Virus genome (UHGV): UHGV-1443735
Direction: 5' to 3' (one strand)
DNA length: 32,176 bases
Source: a virus
Position numbers and translations under genes: made by a program. The notes under the pieces were generated by a model. That model was not told where the DNA came from, searched no databases, and worked only from the letters and a program-made list of their open reading frames with translations. Positions 2,891 through 9,256 of the stretch are shown here, piece after piece (the stretch's first letter is position 1; each line of letters begins with the position of its first letter).

Positions 2891-3072
2891 TGGTTGCCTC
2901 CTTTGCGCCACATCGCATTCAGATATTTGTTGTCATTAACAGAACCGAAACTCTTTCTCTTAAGCAATTCCTCTCTCGATGGCATTGGCTTTACGCGTTG
3001 GCGAATAATCATTTCTGCCGGAAGAATGCCGGGATTGTATGCAAGTCCTCTCATGGTAAATTCCTCAGTCAT
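2887..3072 (-). CDS. small hypothetical protein (about 61 aa)
   Basis: ATG at 3072 overlaps the stop of the upstream gene (ATGACTGA). The longer ORF-track version (to 3207) overlaps the neighbouring gene out of frame and is less likely. Confidence 0.4.
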
Positions 3073-3361
3073 TACTGATAGCGCCATAGCGTGAGCGGTA
3101 ATTACGCAGGCGCGGGTCGATATATTCAGGGAAGTGGGTATATGTGGCTTTGCGGAATGGTCGGATTGATGTCTGGTAAATTCGCTCGCGTTCTTCTTTC
3201 TCTGCAAGCCATATACAATGGCGAAATTCCTTTTCCTCTTTCGTTTCCTGCGGTAGCGACATTATCAGGTCGTAGTTTTTTCTGAATTTATCCAGCACCT
3301 CCGATACGGAATTGCCGGAACAGCGGCGCGGGTCATCCGCACCATACAGAGGCGCTGGCAT
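3065..3361 (-). CDS. hypothetical protein (98 aa)
   Basis: ORF immediately downstream of the SSB-like gene; AAGG-like RBS upstream of the ATG. Confidence 0.55.
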
Positions 3362-3384
3362 AATGGGAGCCTTATTTTCAGTAA

Positions 3385-3972
3385 TCAGAAAGGAGGGTAA
3401 TCGTTCTGGCTGTAACCATAATCATCTGCATGATTCTGGCTTACGTTTTTAGAGCGATTGTCTTTATCTTTGAGATTGGCAACCATGTTGGCGATAGTTT
3501 CTGGTTGCTTGCCTTCTGCCTTTTCTTTAAGGGTTTGACCTGTTTGTGCAATAAACGGGATGCGTATTTCCATCTGGTAGCTGTCTGCGCCAGTCTTTTT
3601 GTTTGTGGTTAATACTTTCTGAAGCACTAACCCGATTTTCTTTCCATGAAATTCAGGTGCAACAAATTTACTGGCGGAAACCATATGCTGCGTTAATTGT
3701 CCAATCCCGGCACACCCCATCATGGCGTGAACGACATTTGCGCCAAATTTGTTTTCCGTTCCGTCATTTTTCTGAACACAGACGCTAAGATATTGGATTT
3801 TACGTCCGTCGTCGGATTCGCCAGAAAACTCAATAAATTTGGCTCCTTTTTCTGATTGCTTTAGTTCTGCTTCAGTAATGGTAATGATATGAGCGCCAGT
3901 TTCGTTAATAAAACCACCTTGCCCTGCGGTCAGTGCTGCTTCTTCGTTATAAGTAAAAATCACGTTGCTCAT
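3385..3972 (-). CDS. phage SSB-like ssDNA-binding protein, probable partner of Sak4 (195 aa)
   Basis: C-terminus DDYGYSQNDYPPF resembles the acidic SSB tail ending in (D)IPF. Start overlaps the stop of the upstream ATPase gene (ATGA). The pairing of Sak4-type ATPase with a cognate SSB is known from phage recombination modules. Confidence 0.6.
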   Translation of the reverse strand: MSNVIFTYNEEAALTAGQGGFINETGAHIITITEAELKQSEKGAKFIEFSGESDDGRKIQYLSVCVQKNDGTENKFGANVVHAMMGCAGIGQLTQHMVSASKFVAPEFHGKKIGLVLQKVLTTNKKTGADSYQMEIRIPFIAQTGQTLKEKAEGKQPETIANMVANLKDKDNRSKNVSQNHADDYGYSQNDYPPF

Positions 3973-4649
3973 GCGGCGTTTTCCTTAATTTGATGAACAT
4001 TATTGATGCCGTAGTAATCACAAACAGTGGCATCGACGAAAGAGAGATCGTTATCAATCTCATTGGAATCAAACATTCCCATTGGGGATTTAACAGTGTC
4101 TGCACCGTTGTTTTTCGTGGTGAAAAAGAACTGGTCATCGCGGGTAAGAGTGCGAAGAACTATAGTAAACATGCCTTCGACAGTGATTTTCTCGTCCAGC
4201 ATTTTGCCGATAGTTTTCATTTTCACGCGCCCCATAGGGGTTTCTTCGGTGTGCGCAAGAAAATAGACTCTCAGGTCATCAGGTGCATCCTGTGCAGCCT
4301 TAATCACCTCCCATGCGTGGCGGCCTATCTCAGTAAATTTATCAAACGATTTTTCTTCTGAGCGGCGCATAAACTCATTGCTCATCACATACTGGAAGTC
4401 ATCAACAATAACGATTCTTTTCCCGTATTCGTGAGCACGCTTAATTACGGCAACTATTACGTCCCATTTGTCAGTGGTAACTACGGTTCCTTTTTTTGCT
4501 CTGGCATCCCATGCCAGCCATTCTTTTGATTTAAATGGTAGCGGCTTGCCTATTGGTTTTATAAGTATTGCTTCCTCTGGATTGATATTTCTCATGCTGG
4601 TTGATTTTCCGGTGCCAGACTCACCGAGTATTAATGTCGCAGTTCCCAT
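3969..4649 (-). CDS. sak4: Sak4-like RecA-fold ATPase (AAA_24 family) (226 aa)
   Basis: N-terminal Walker A GESGTGKS and Walker B-like IVIVDDF; size and single-domain architecture match phage Sak4-type recombination ATPases. Confidence 0.75.
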   Translation of the reverse strand: MGTATLILGESGTGKSTSMRNINPEEAILIKPIGKPLPFKSKEWLAWDARAKKGTVVTTDKWDVIVAVIKRAHEYGKRIVIVDDFQYVMSNEFMRRSEEKSFDKFTEIGRHAWEVIKAAQDAPDDLRVYFLAHTEETPMGRVKMKTIGKMLDEKITVEGMFTIVLRTLTRDDQFFFTTKNNGADTVKSPMGMFDSNEIDNDLSFVDATVCDYYGINNVHQIKENAA

Positions 4650-4657
4650 AATTCACC

Positions 4658-4846
4658 TCAGAATGGTAATTCGGATGGGGAGGAAAGAAATTCGCGCTCA
4701 TTCATGCGCTCTCTTTGTGCTTGCCATAAACAAAGTTGTTTCTTTGATTTATCTCCCGCTTTACGCCAGTAACGAGCCTCAGCAATGTGATATTCTCTTT
4801 TTAATCGACTTAACTCTGGAGTTTTCGCCAGCTCTACCGGAATCAT
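4658..4846 (-). CDS. small hypothetical protein (62 aa), C-terminus ...SPSELPF
   Basis: ORF with ATGA overlap to the upstream kil-like gene; occupies the position of gam in lambda but is not Gam-like. Confidence 0.5.
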   Translation of the reverse strand: MIPVELAKTPELSRLKREYHIAEARYWRKAGDKSKKQLCLWQAQRERMNEREFLSSPSELPF

Positions 4847-4956
4847 TTAGACCTCCATTTTCTGTAGGCTTCGACGGCCTCACCAAACATCTTTTCATCG
4901 CCAATAAAAGTGGCGATAGTGAATTTAGTCTGAATAGCCATAAGTGTTTTATCCAT
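4843..4956 (-). CDS. kil: Kil-like host division inhibitor (37 aa)
   Basis: MDKTLMAIQTKFTIATFIGDEKMF matches my recollection of the lambda Kil N-terminus. AGGAG lies 9 nt upstream, and the start overlaps the cIII stop (ATGGATAA). The ORF-track version (start 5046) has no RBS. Confidence 0.5.
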   Translation of the reverse strand: MDKTLMAIQTKFTIATFIGDEKMFGEAVEAYRKWRSK

Positions 4957-5095
4957 TTTTTGGAACTCCTGGCTGATTAAGTACGTCGATGAGTCGTTTC
5001 CATCCGTCACGTAATTTACGGGTGATTCGTTCAAGTAAAGATTCATTTAATTGGAAGGCACCCATGCGAGCGCCTCCCGCGATTGCGTAAATCAT
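4949..5095 (-). CDS. cIII: CIII-like protein (48 aa)
   Basis: Found by manual translation: ...ESLLERITRKLRDGWKRLIDVLNQPGVPKNG matches the conserved core of lambda CIII. AAGGA RBS upstream; below the ORF-track size cutoff. Confidence 0.75.
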   Translation of the reverse strand: MIYAIAGGARMGAFQLNESLLERITRKLRDGWKRLIDVLNQPGVPKNG

Positions 5096-5119
5096 GGGTG
5101 GTTCCTTATGTTGGTTTTA

Positions 5120-6088
5120 TTAGTAGGTTATTTTTGTTGCGAATACTTCGCCTTTTACGATGGCTGTTATGATATTTTTAGCAACATCTTCTGATGCGCC
5201 AACCTTGATAAGGTCAGCAAGTATTTTGTTATTTACTTCTTTCCGGTGAGCTTTATCCTTTGCTCTACACTCTTCTTCTTCCTTGATTCTTTTTTCTTCT
5301 GCTATTCTGGCTTGCTCTTTTGCTTCAGCCTCGCGCCGGATTCGTTCAGCCTCCTCCTGTGCTTTTCGGCGTTCTGCTTCAATTGCCGCCTGCTTTTCTC
5401 TTTCAGCTCGTTCTGCTGCCTCTTTTGCTTCGCGCTGTGCTCGTTGCTCGGCTTCAATGCGTTCACGCTCTGCACGTTCCGCTGCGGCCTTAGCTTCTGC
5501 TTCTCGCCTTGCTGCTGCTTCAATTTCGGCTTTTGCCTTTGCTTCGGCTTCTGCTCTGGCTTTCTCTTCAGCTTCTCTTTTTAAGCGTTCTTCATGCTCT
5601 CGCTTTTCCTGCTCCGCTTTGAGTCTTGCCTCTTCTCTTTGGCGGTCAAATTCGCGATCCATCAAAATAGCTATTTCATGGTCAGACTCAATTTGCTTTG
5701 CGAGAGCTTCAGCTGCTGCCTTAGCTTCTTCTTCGGCTTTAATCCGTGCCTGTTCCTCCTCATAATCAGTAAGAGGCTGGCGTGCCTTGGATTTCAGCTC
5801 ATCAAGGCGATCACGCACTGTCTTGCGGTTGGCATCAATTAGCTTTGGAATTTCCTTCAGTTCAGCAACAAGGTCTTTTCCAAGACCATCGAGATATGTT
5901 TTCGTCTGCGCAACTTTATACGCCAGAGAAGCGATCTCCTTTCTGCCCTTTGCCGTTGTGATATCAGGCACAAAGGACATAACTTCACGTTCAACCTTTT
6001 GAAGGATTTCTTCAATCTGGTCGGCAGACTGAAATACAGTCATTGCATTTGCTTTTTCAATAACAACTAAATCTGTTACTTCACTCAT
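5120..6088 (-). CDS. coiled-coil protein with TolA-like E/A/K/R-rich repeat region (about 322 aa)
   Basis: Start refined to ATG at 6088 with GGAGG at 5-nt spacing. The central ~130 residues are low-complexity charged repeats (AEAKAKAEIEAAARREAEAK...); N- and C-terminal regions are non-repetitive. Confidence 0.7.
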   Translation of the reverse strand: MSEVTDLVVIEKANAMTVFQSADQIEEILQKVEREVMSFVPDITTAKGRKEIASLAYKVAQTKTYLDGLGKDLVAELKEIPKLIDANRKTVRDRLDELKSKARQPLTDYEEEQARIKAEEEAKAAAEALAKQIESDHEIAILMDREFDRQREEARLKAEQEKREHEERLKREAEEKARAEAEAKAKAEIEAAARREAEAKAAAERAERERIEAEQRAQREAKEAAERAEREKQAAIEAERRKAQEEAERIRREAEAKEQARIAEEKRIKEEEECRAKDKAHRKEVNNKILADLIKVGASEDVAKNIITAIVKGEVFATKITY

Positions 6089-6100
6089 ATATCCTCCATC

Positions 6101-6127
6101 AAAAAAATCGCCCTCACATCGGAGGGC
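6101..6127 (-). terminator. rho-independent terminator (minus strand)
   Basis: 6-bp stem GCCCTC/GAGGGC with 6-nt loop, followed on the minus strand by a run of 7 T, immediately upstream of the RBS of the 5120-6088 gene. Confidence 0.6.
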
Positions 6128-6222
6128 AAAGAAGATTTCCAATAATCAGAACAAGTCGGCTCCTGTTTAGTTACGAGCGACATTGCTCCGTGTATTCACT
6201 CGTTGGAATGAATACACAGTGC

Positions 6223-7793: not shown

Positions 7794-8126
7794 TCAATCG
7801 TAATAAGCTGGAATTGATTTTCCGCGTTGCTTCTGGCGGCCTGAGCATGTCACACCCATTTCACTGCGTGGCTTGCTGTACCATGTGCGATGATTCTTGC
7901 GCTCAACAGCTTCAGCGCGTTTTTCCATCTCTTCCCGATACTCAGCCAGCACCGTTAAATCAATCGGGTTCAGAGCGCTTTCTACGCGTGATTTAGGCTT
8001 TCGAGTCAGCGAGAGAATTTTGCGGGTGTCTGGCTTGGCGCTTACCCCAACTAACAGGGGGTTTGCTGCTTTCCATTGAGCCTGTTTCTCTGCGCGACGT
8101 TCGCGGCGGCGTGTTTGTGCATCCAT
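7794..8126 (-). CDS. N: antitermination protein N, lambda type (110 aa)
   Basis: N-terminus MDAQTRRRERRAEKQAQWKAANPLLVGVSAKP matches lambda N (arginine-rich boxB-binding motif); RBS CAGGAGAATCCAG-ATG; nutL lies upstream. Confidence 0.92.
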   Translation of the reverse strand: MDAQTRRRERRAEKQAQWKAANPLLVGVSAKPDTRKILSLTRKPKSRVESALNPIDLTVLAEYREEMEKRAEAVERKNHRTWYSKPRSEMGVTCSGRQKQRGKSIPAYYD

Positions 8127-8614: not shown

Positions 8615-9256
8615 TCAGGAGAATTTCATCATCATCTGCACTGCTACGCCGATTATCTTGCAGTTGCCGTCGATTGGGATCAACGGATAGGCAGGGTTAA
8701 GCCCTTTCAGGTATTTGTTACCGCCATCAATGATTAGCTTCTTGAACGTGGCTTCATTAGCATCTGTCAGCTTCGCAACTACCAGGCTTCCATTAACGGC
8801 TTCCTTTCCAGTGTCGAACAGAACCAGCATACCCTCAGGAACGCTAAGGCCGGTAGGAGCTGTCATTGAGTCGCCCTGAACCCTGAGCCAGAAGGCGTCA
8901 CCGACAACGTGACAATCTGATTCATACCACTCATCCACTGCCTGAGGGTTGTACGGCTCTACGGCCTCACTCCATGCACCTGCGCTAACCCAGCTAATCA
9001 ACGGAAACTTTTCCCCTGGCTTGTATTGTCCCTGATAGTTGTCGCCAAAAAGCAGTTCTGCCGGAGCGACGCCCAAAGCTTTAGCTATTACCTCTGCGTC
9101 ATCAACACTAACGCTTCTGGTTCCTGATTCATAGTTGCCGATCCGAGATTGTGAAGCCCAGCCGCAAAGCTCCGCCAGCGCCTTCTGTGAAAGCCCTTTA
9201 TCTTCCCGTAATCGCTTGATACGCGCGGCGATAGTTTCTGTTCTGTTCATGCGCAT
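8615..9256 (-). CDS. cI: CI/C2-family prophage repressor (HTH_XRE N-terminal domain, S24 LexA-like C-terminal domain)
   Basis: HTH LSQKALAELCGWASQSRIGNYE, then a C-terminal domain (PLISWVSAGAW...VQGDSMTAP...LVVAKL...) with the Ser/Lys dyad, very similar to P22 C2. No RBS before the ATGs at 9256/9250, consistent with a leaderless pRM transcript. Confidence 0.9.
   Translation of the reverse strand: MRMNRTETIAARIKRLREDKGLSQKALAELCGWASQSRIGNYESGTRSVSVDDAEVIAKALGVAPAELLFGDNYQGQYKPGEKFPLISWVSAGAWSEAVEPYNPQAVDEWYESDCHVVGDAFWLRVQGDSMTAPTGLSVPEGMLVLFDTGKEAVNGSLVVAKLTDANEATFKKLIIDGGNKYLKGLNPAYPLIPIDGNCKIIGVAVQMMMKFS

Follow-up and report, generated by a model that had tools for sequence, protein, structure and literature searches.

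The region at positions 3385-4846 of the virus genome UHGV-1443735 (32,176 nt, all of which is called the window here) holds three genes, hkaM, sak4 and ssb, of a homologous-recombination module whose closest described relative is that of phage HK620, for which Clark 2001 is reportedly a source. In HK620, Sak4 (HkaL) binds single-stranded DNA (ssDNA) and anneals complementary strands in an ATP-dependent manner (Hutinet et al. 2018, PMC5928155). Its partner HkaK is a bona fide SSB (single-strand-binding protein) that binds ssDNA, and, when the SSB is co-expressed, recombineering by Sak4 over background rises from 15-fold to about 210-fold (PMC5928155). The NDYPPF tail of this SSB was picked for study owing to its likeness to the E. 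coli DDDIPF, and its deletion lowers recombineering approximately 10-fold; without it, Sak4 no longer binds SSB-covered ssDNA and annealing is no longer stimulated (PMC5928155). The remaining protein, HkaM, was described as an 'orphan' of 'unknown function' (PMC5928155), and hkaM is discussed only by Hutinet et al. 2018 in the literature found.

The region in the window is almost certainly a homologous-recombination module of this HK620 type, carried by a mosaic P22-like (lambdoid) coliphage or prophage, because of its DNA and protein identity to HK620, the same gene order, the profile matches, and the experiments published for HK620. A megablast of positions 3000-5100 against phage genomes returned HK620 with 98.3% DNA identity over 2,045 nt, and both the gene order (hkaJ (abc2), hkaK, hkaL, hkaM, kil) and the gene overlaps are the same. 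The encoded proteins are identical to those of HK620 at 226/226 positions for Sak4/HkaL, 193/195 for SSB/HkaK, 61/62 for HkaM, and 95/98 for Abc2. The differences are point substitutions only (window residue first), among them E153V and N166S in the SSB and S56V in HkaM, while the SSB tip NDYPPF is unchanged. The Sak4-SSB-Abc2 part is already known, being another copy of a published and common module, and the three-gene block is present in 179-232 of 5,426 complete E. coli genomes (about 3-4%), as well as in dozens of Shiga toxin (Stx)-converting phages. As a whole, the region is best explained, with good confidence, as an HK620-type module in which the Pro-Phe tip of HkaM would serve as a docking peptide; the second element of this explanation is graded separately below.

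The listing of open reading frames (ORFs) gives three consecutive minus-strand ORFs, at 3385-3972 (195 aa), 3969-4649 (226 aa), and 4658-4846 (62 aa), which bears out the first-pass annotation of a 62-aa protein ending SPSELPF, a Sak4-like ATPase, and a 195-aa protein ending DYPPF. The same annotation had located them downstream of cIII and kil, at the position of lambda gam, bet and exo, which the Pfam and PHROG matches of the neighboring genes confirm. The features of the module are the following:

4843-4956, upstream of hkaM in transcription order: kil (Pfam Lambda_Kil, 1.3e-19).
4658-4846, minus strand: hkaM-family gene, first gene of the recombination module, 62 aa ending ...FLSSPSELPF (PHROG 1723, 1.6e-33).
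4661-4672, minus strand: codons of the hkaM tip E-L-P-F, with Pro-Phe-COOH constant across the HkaM family.
4650-4660, minus strand: hkaM stop codon plus 8-nt spacer, TGAGGTGAATT, with a Shine-Dalgarno-like GAGGTGA for sak4.
3969-4649, minus strand: sak4 (hkaL), 226 aa, a P-loop protein with AAA_24 and PHROG 2872 matches.
4602-4625, minus strand: Walker A motif of sak4, GESGTGKS, residues 9-16.
4398-4415, minus strand: Walker B motif of sak4, IVIVDD, residues 79-84.
3385-3972, minus strand: ssb (hkaK), 195 aa ending ...YSQNDYPPF (PHROG 743).
About 3556-3903, minus strand: predicted oligonucleotide/oligosaccharide-binding (OB)-fold core of the SSB, roughly residues 24-139.
3388-3405, minus strand: codons of the SSB tip NDYPPF, by which Sak4 is recruited and stimulated in HK620.
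3065-3361, minus strand: abc2, anti-RecBCD, last gene of the module (Pfam Anti-RecBCD_p2, 4.4e-63; PHROG 656).

These genes are tightly packed, with the ATG of hkaM overlapping the kil stop (ATGA) and the start of ssb overlapping the sak4 stop (ATGA) at 3969-3972. The region is the early-left operon of a lambdoid phage in which three genes fill the lambda gam-bet-exo slot. Leftward transcription from pL passes through kil, hkaM, sak4, ssb, and abc2 in turn.

The window Sak4 matches Pfam AAA_24 with 30.0 bits (E 5.8e-7; the curated cutoff is 27 bits) and PHROG 2872, 'Sak4-like ssDNA annealing protein', with 3e-108 over residues 1-220; the protein found nothing useful in a PDB sequence search and no match in NCBIfam. 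It is a core-only protein of 226 aa in total, in which Walker A and B are present and the Erf-type C-terminal domain is absent by profile. The cognate SSB gene adjoins sak4, and the Sak4-SSB pair occurs in about 65 of 80 related loci. Through its identity to HK620 Sak4 at all 226 positions, the product is predicted to be a core-only RecA-like ATPase acting as an ATP-dependent annealing protein.

Its partner, the 195-aa protein, matches PHROG 743, 'single strand DNA binding protein', with 5.9e-67. An AlphaFold2 model built on 47 homologues (pLDDT, the predicted local distance difference test, 80.1) has a beta-barrel into which a single helix is inserted, and its tail is disordered from residue 176 on, with a pLDDT below 50 for residues 176-192. 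Foldseek places PrgE (8e-4) and B. subtilis SsbA (6e-3) among the closest folds, together with Rim1, RPA, and PriB, and the protein is therefore predicted to carry an OB fold. PrgE of plasmid pCF10 (PDB 8S4S/8S4T) is itself a non-canonical OB-fold SSB; the likeness is one of fold and not of family membership, since identity is only 12-14% and no relationship was detected at the sequence level. Many of the 147 homologues found are named 'DUF669 domain-containing protein' by NCBI, and this type of SSB has been called 'SSB-2' (PMC12315714). The 195-aa protein itself has no match to DUF669 in the Pfam-A copy used (E up to 1) and none in NCBIfam. It likewise lacks a match to the canonical bacterial SSB family PF00436, and a PDB sequence search found none either; it works like an SSB but stands outside that family. 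Its C-terminus is PF in 65 of 116 full-length homologues, with a terminal F in nearly all of them. Like the bacterial SSB C-terminal peptide (SSB-Ct, ...DDDIPF), the phage SSB ends in Pro-Phe-COOH, and partner recruitment by the tail has been demonstrated for the phage protein. Three earlier proposals thus held: that the ATPase is of the Sak4 type and not of a non-recombination family, that the 195-aa protein is SSB-like and belongs to an ssDNA-binding family, and that the DYPPF tip acts like the SSB tip DIPF, the last of which was already a published fact through the NDYPPF deletion phenotype (PMC5928155).

The last gene of the module, abc2, is the functional counterpart of lambda gam, and its product has been published to bind RecC and to convert RecBCD into a helper. 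In the mechanism proposed for the module, the SSB would coat ssDNA, its NDYPPF tail would bring in Sak4, which would anneal with ATP, and Abc2 would reprogram RecBCD, so that these genes together would do the job of lambda Gam, Bet, and Exo. Lambda Red occupies the same slot downstream of cIII and kil and performs the same task (blunting RecBCD and annealing ssDNA), although none of its proteins is homologous to those of the window module. Unlike lambda, the window module has no exonuclease, resection being presumably carried out by Abc2-modified RecBCD; in addition, its annealing protein needs ATP, and the phage supplies its own SSB. Phage P22, on the other hand, has arf-erf-abc1-abc2 at the same position between kil and the ea genes, with the same Abc2, and holds a small accessory gene (arf) directly before the annealing-protein gene, as is the case of hkaM in the window. 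However, the fold of Erf differs from that of Sak4, and Abc1 stands at the place of the SSB. P22 Arf is said to aid Erf recombination.

HkaM is the part of this module that goes beyond the published picture. A first search for relatives yielded 19, and a full-library profile followed by a second profile search extended the family to 103 clusters, all of them from Enterobacterales (Escherichia, Salmonella, Citrobacter, Enterobacter, Klebsiella, Kosakonia, Atlantibacter, Buttiauxella, Pantoea, Serratia, Yersinia, Erwinia, and Symbiopectobacterium). A scan of genome contigs for HkaM gave two loci only, one of them spurious. The protein ends in Pro-Phe in 84 of the 103 clusters, and the other 19 correspond to truncations, frameshifts into sak4, fusions, or a single P-to-S variant. 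In an alignment of 56 sequences with identities down to approximately 32%, the only invariant columns are A23, E45, P60, and F61, with S12, R16, R27, G30, N48, F52, and L53 near-invariant; the diverse alignment has no conserved stretch of 7-10 columns. Position -2 of the tail can be L, C, P, M, A, I, Q or T, whereas position -3 is mostly E, P or D; the commonest tail in the family is GPCPF, and the window protein has a lone Glu at -3. The spacer between the conserved F-L and the terminal P-F spans 3-6 residues and varies even among near-identical alleles (S56 to A, C or V). Across relatives, the codons of the tip also change (CCA, CCG or CCT for Pro, TTC or TTT for Phe, TGA or TAA for the stop); this synonymous variation of the Pro and Phe codons places the constraint on the HkaM protein rather than on the ribosome-binding site of the gene that follows.

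The AlphaFold2 model of HkaM (pLDDT 87.7) consists of a two-helix hairpin, with helices at residues 9-29 and 32-53 above a pLDDT of 90, followed by a tail at 54-61, and confidence falls to 71 for residues 51-60 and to 60 for residue 61. The tether is variable and polymorphic, with the lowest model confidence at 51-61, and far shorter than the linker of an SSB. The body of the protein bears a mean net charge of +5.7, and its last 8 residues one of -0.36. A Foldseek search with the model against the PDB returned generic Rop-like hairpins only (E 2.9 or worse), uninformative on function, and HkaM belongs to no Pfam or NCBIfam family. The label 'recombinase' that PHROG 1723 and RefSeq attach to it was rejected, as it is a 62-aa two-helix hairpin without any Pfam or NCBIfam catalytic or DNA-pairing domain; it was apparently inherited from the name 'arf' first given to the HK620 gene for its position. 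HkaM is not a homologue of P22 Arf either: there is no sequence similarity, the two fall into different families (PHROG 2445 for Arf, 1723 for HkaM), and only their position is common. Arf is an acidic protein of 47 aa that ends GYYS, whereas HkaM is basic and ends PF.

The Pro-Phe-COOH end is also that of the bacterial SSB-Ct. However, no more than one acidic residue occurs in the HkaM tail (most relatives lack any), the tail is 4-8 residues long, and the tip sits on a basic hairpin instead of on an OB fold with a long disordered linker. Among the 4,921 ORFs of at least 40 aa on both strands of about 110 related loci, 184 end in PF, and 182 of these are HkaM or SSB, which argues that such ends are not due to chance. 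One of the other two, at L007:5798-5986 in a Phytobacter ursingii prophage, is an unrelated 62-aa ORF without PHROG match that ends ...EFTNCPF and lies directly upstream of an HkaM homologue.

Two fusions also involve the HkaM hairpin. P0077 (122 aa, from a Logan contig outside the window) joins it in frame to a Lar-like zinc ribbon (PF14354) at the junction ...YFLGPCPF|CGGAAH..., where the HkaM end PCPF is at the same time the start of the first zinc knuckle of Lar, PCPFCGG. This protein probably arose by a deletion across microhomology that removed the whole recombination module, and P0009 is a comparable fusion of HkaM to Abc2.

The genomic context of hkaM was surveyed in 80 IMG/VR loci with an HkaM at least 97% identical. 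In about 65 of them HkaM is accompanied by Sak4, a DUF669-type SSB, and Abc2, and in about 16 by an 'Erf-like' annealing protein (with a Rad52-like core), a bacterial-type SSB (...DDSDIPF), an optional HNH protein and exonuclease, and Abc2. Examples of the Erf type are CurroJimenez_Bas106 (HkaM 100% identical, then Erf-like, SSB, HNH, exonuclease, and abc2), ST64T (HkaM, Erf-like, Abc1, and Abc2), and ES18 (HkaM, Erf-like, SSB, HNH, and abc2). Diverged HkaM proteins, about 33-66% identical, precede genes of the Pfam families ERF (PF04404; L089, L091, L095-97, L103-105) and Rad52_Rad22 (PF04098; L092-94, L099-102, L106-107), as well as long AAA_24 genes (L007, L109), with a gap of 7-12 nt between the hkaM stop and the next start in all directly adjacent pairs. 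Exceptions to the adjacency are an HNH insertion (L108) and a truncated prophage end (L110). HkaM therefore belongs to the recombination module, and the annealing-protein gene, with any of three cores (Sak4/AAA_24, Erf, or Rad52-like), is its one constant neighbor. As alternatives for a constant partner, Abc2 is absent from 8 of 19 diverse loci, and neither Kil nor the phage SSB is present in all loci. Phage Louie, otherwise like the window, has a RecT module and no HkaM.

The first exception, at L108:4192-4662 in a Buttiauxella prophage, is an HNH_3 endonuclease gene between hkaM and erf, and it is the sole intact non-adjacent locus; HNH genes recur within Erf-type modules (CurroJimenez, ES18, L091). 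A further locus, L047:1304-6262 (IMGVR_UViG_2681813004_000020), holds two complete recombination modules in tandem on one phage contig, with one HkaM homologue before each. The first comprises cIII, kil, HkaM, Sak4, a DUF669-type SSB, and a partial Abc2, and the second a 56-aa HkaM homologue (PCPF), an Erf-like protein, a bacterial SSB, an exonuclease, and Abc2.

The adjacency to the annealing-protein gene and the fixed end of HkaM suggest a function. Under the reading favored here, the PF-COOH end would be a docking peptide of the SSB-tail kind, read by the module machinery: by Sak4 in the window, and by the Erf-type C-terminal domain in other modules. HkaM would then be an accessory or adaptor of the annealing step and not a recombinase. 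That the end is such a peptide is put forward tentatively, and two observations speak for it: a fixed end on a polymorphic tether of variable length is characteristic of linear motifs, and the Pro and terminal Phe matter genetically in SSB tails. In the SSB tip, Pro176 and Phe177 are genetically critical (ssb-113 P176S, terminal Phe deletions). The most economical partner of HkaM would be the product of the adjacent, apparently translationally coupled gene. There is also precedent for annealing proteins that read SSB tails, in Sak4 with NDYPPF, in the C-terminal domain of 80alpha Sak with the last 7 residues of 80alpha SSB (PMC11846896), and in the C-terminal domain of Red-beta, which reads the SSB C-terminal peptide as well (PMC6393309). 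A fuller version, slightly more doubtful, might regard HkaM as defining a family of small accessory proteins in enterobacterial lambdoid phages, an SSB-tail mimic on a non-SSB scaffold, which could fit the tail-reading site of whichever annealing protein is encoded next and so control its loading on SSB-coated ssDNA, or else occupy the SSB-tail pockets of host nucleases or helicases. Phage SSB-tail mimics have not been reported in the literature found, and neither the family-wide PF-COOH end of HkaM nor its fixed position before three annealing-protein cores is described in any paper found.

Several results weigh against a docking function. The full HK620 module (sak4, ssb, abc2, and hkaM) equals sak4 plus ssb in oligonucleotide recombineering (PMC5928155), and HkaM is therefore neither required nor strongly inhibitory in that assay. 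A tail that is non-acidic in most members (GPCPF, GPAPF), on a strongly basic body, is the reverse of an SSB tail; moreover, the tail measures only 4-8 residues and is not preceded by a long disordered linker. Very different HkaM variants, sharing about 33% identity, accompany almost the same annealing protein, identical ones accompany unrelated annealing proteins, and such a lack of co-variation does not single out the annealing protein as the partner. Finally, in 80 Erf loci, the only PF-ended small ORFs upstream of Erf were members of the HkaM family (23). A PF tip is thus not a general rule for small ORFs before Erf, since it is lacking in Arf of the P22 type (2 loci), in a family ending '...MGVGYE' (6 loci), and in the other upstream ORFs.

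This MGVGYE family, found in the IMG/VR Erf loci L135-L140, comprises proteins of 51-97 aa that end ...MGVGYE or ...MGMTYE and whose genes immediately precede erf and overlap the erf start. Together with Arf and HkaM, this makes three unrelated occupants of the 'arf position'.

Another motif considered for the HkaM tip, the beta-clamp-binding QL[SD]LF, was rejected on a mismatch to the motif.

A further element of these loci is a domain of approximately 56 residues (consensus ...EQ[IV]LK.F..YA......L...Y...W..L.G.......C..V..IR..ELK...) at the C-terminus of the HkaM-adjacent annealing proteins, except for the short HK620 Sak4, and also of P22 Erf. It behaves like a mobile domain common to three cores, namely Erf (PF04404), Rad52-like (PF04098), and long AAA_24/Sak4-like proteins, with examples at L003:2698-3405, L092:1663-2364, L007:6191-7063, and L006:3255-3872 (P22 erf). 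By analogy with the C-terminal domains of Red-beta and 80alpha Sak, this domain may read SSB tails. The profile gave no support for such a domain on RecT of phage Louie or at other places in the window.

Among the alternatives to docking, the one that survives best is that the terminal Pro-Phe of HkaM is structural, forming a hairpin cap or the interface of a Rop-like four-helix dimer, so that the likeness to SSB is coincidental and the protein acts through its basic helices, for instance by binding DNA, RNA or another protein. The nearest folds are indeed Rop-like hairpins, which dimerise, and F52 and L53 lie only 3 residues before PF in most members, where three hydrophobics could pack; a short, non-acidic tail would suit such a role as well. 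However, a rigid cap should not allow a spacer of 3-6 residues between FL and PF that is the most polymorphic part of the protein, the tail-containing blocks 51-61 are the lowest in model confidence, and PF-COOH is otherwise borne only by SSBs in these loci (182/184 ORFs are HkaM or SSB). This explanation is rather unlikely.

Somewhat less probable still is a reading that builds on the speculation of the first-pass annotation, that the small protein could compete for SSB-tail binding sites. In it, HkaM would be a host-directed decoy SSB tail that occupies the pockets of host proteins such as exonuclease I, RecJ, RecQ, RecO or PriA, and would thereby protect 3' ssDNA ends or redirect replication restart while the phage recombines. 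That the same HkaM serves unrelated annealing proteins would follow from a constant host target, and the family is confined to Enterobacterales, whose SSB ends DDDIPF. In addition, E-L-P-F of the window is nearer to D-I-P-F than is the Y-P-P-F of the phage SSB, and P and F are the two critical residues of the host SSB. Mostly non-acidic tails (PCPF, PAPF) on a very basic body, however, fit poorly to the basic-rimmed SSB-Ct pockets, and a host inhibitor needs neither strict adjacency nor apparent translational coupling to the annealing-protein gene. Furthermore, the presence of hkaM gave no gain in oligonucleotide recombineering (PMC5928155).

The junction between hkaM and the next gene bears on a third alternative. 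A 14-nt junction, TGAGGTGAATTATG, which comprises the hkaM stop, a Shine-Dalgarno-like sequence, and the start codon, is identical before sak4 and before Erf-like genes, covering the window, CurroJimenez_Bas106, ST64T, and ES18. This identity, together with HkaM proteins up to 100% identical in both module types, indicates that the swap of annealing proteins was recent and took place exactly at the start codon. It could then be proposed that hkaM is a hitch-hiker in the Sak4 module, a functionless gene left behind when the Sak4-SSB pair replaced an Erf-type pair, and the proposal would also account for two facts: alone among the HkaM-adjacent annealing proteins, the short HK620 Sak4 lacks the Erf-type C-terminal domain, and HkaM is dispensable in recombineering (PMC5928155). 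Selection argues otherwise. When unique mutations are crudely counted across 61 Sak4-type loci, hkaM has 22 synonymous and 10 non-synonymous changes, a ratio of non-synonymous to synonymous polymorphism (pN/pS) of 0.12, as low as that of sak4 (0.13; ssb 0.19, abc2 0.36), and four of its non-synonymous alleles fall on the spacer residue 56. The gene is under purifying selection in the Sak4 context too. Its ORF is intact in essentially all of the approximately 65 Sak4-type loci, and diverged HkaM proteins also accompany long AAA_24 proteins and DUF669-type SSBs, making a hitch-hiker very improbable. Least credible of all is a mere leader ORF, whose translation would deliver ribosomes to the annealing-protein gene regardless of the peptide: the Shine-Dalgarno-like GAGGTGA shares bases with the hkaM stop, and every gap measures 7-12 nt, but the conservation is at the protein level (invariant residues over identities of 32-100%, a confident common fold, synonymous codon variation, and low pN/pS).

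Outside the module, the phage of the window and HK620 are different mosaics. The rest of the window is another mosaic of P22-like coliphages, whose best whole-window match covers only 40%, and its flanking features are:

4949-5095, minus strand: cIII (PHROG 550).
7794-8126: N-like antiterminator.
8615-9256: repressor.

The N-terminus of cIII differs from that of HK620 at residues 2-17 (IYAIAGGARMGAFQLN in the window, QYAIAGWPVAGCPS in HK620) and is identical beyond, a divergence that marks the upstream mosaic boundary of the module. A charged 340-aa protein (5120-6142, minus strand) stands in for HK620 hkaP/hkaQ between cIII and the N region. Its central approximately 150 residues are of low complexity and rich in E, A, K, and R (EAEAKAKAEIEAAARREAEAK...), and it matches only PHROGs of unknown function (1376, 21365, and 17211).

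HkaM is thus the only lead that this region offers, and its invariant PF-COOH end and obligate position give a concrete hypothesis. If true, docking by HkaM could account for the transfer of phage annealing proteins to SSB-coated DNA, and it might matter for the design of recombineering tools.

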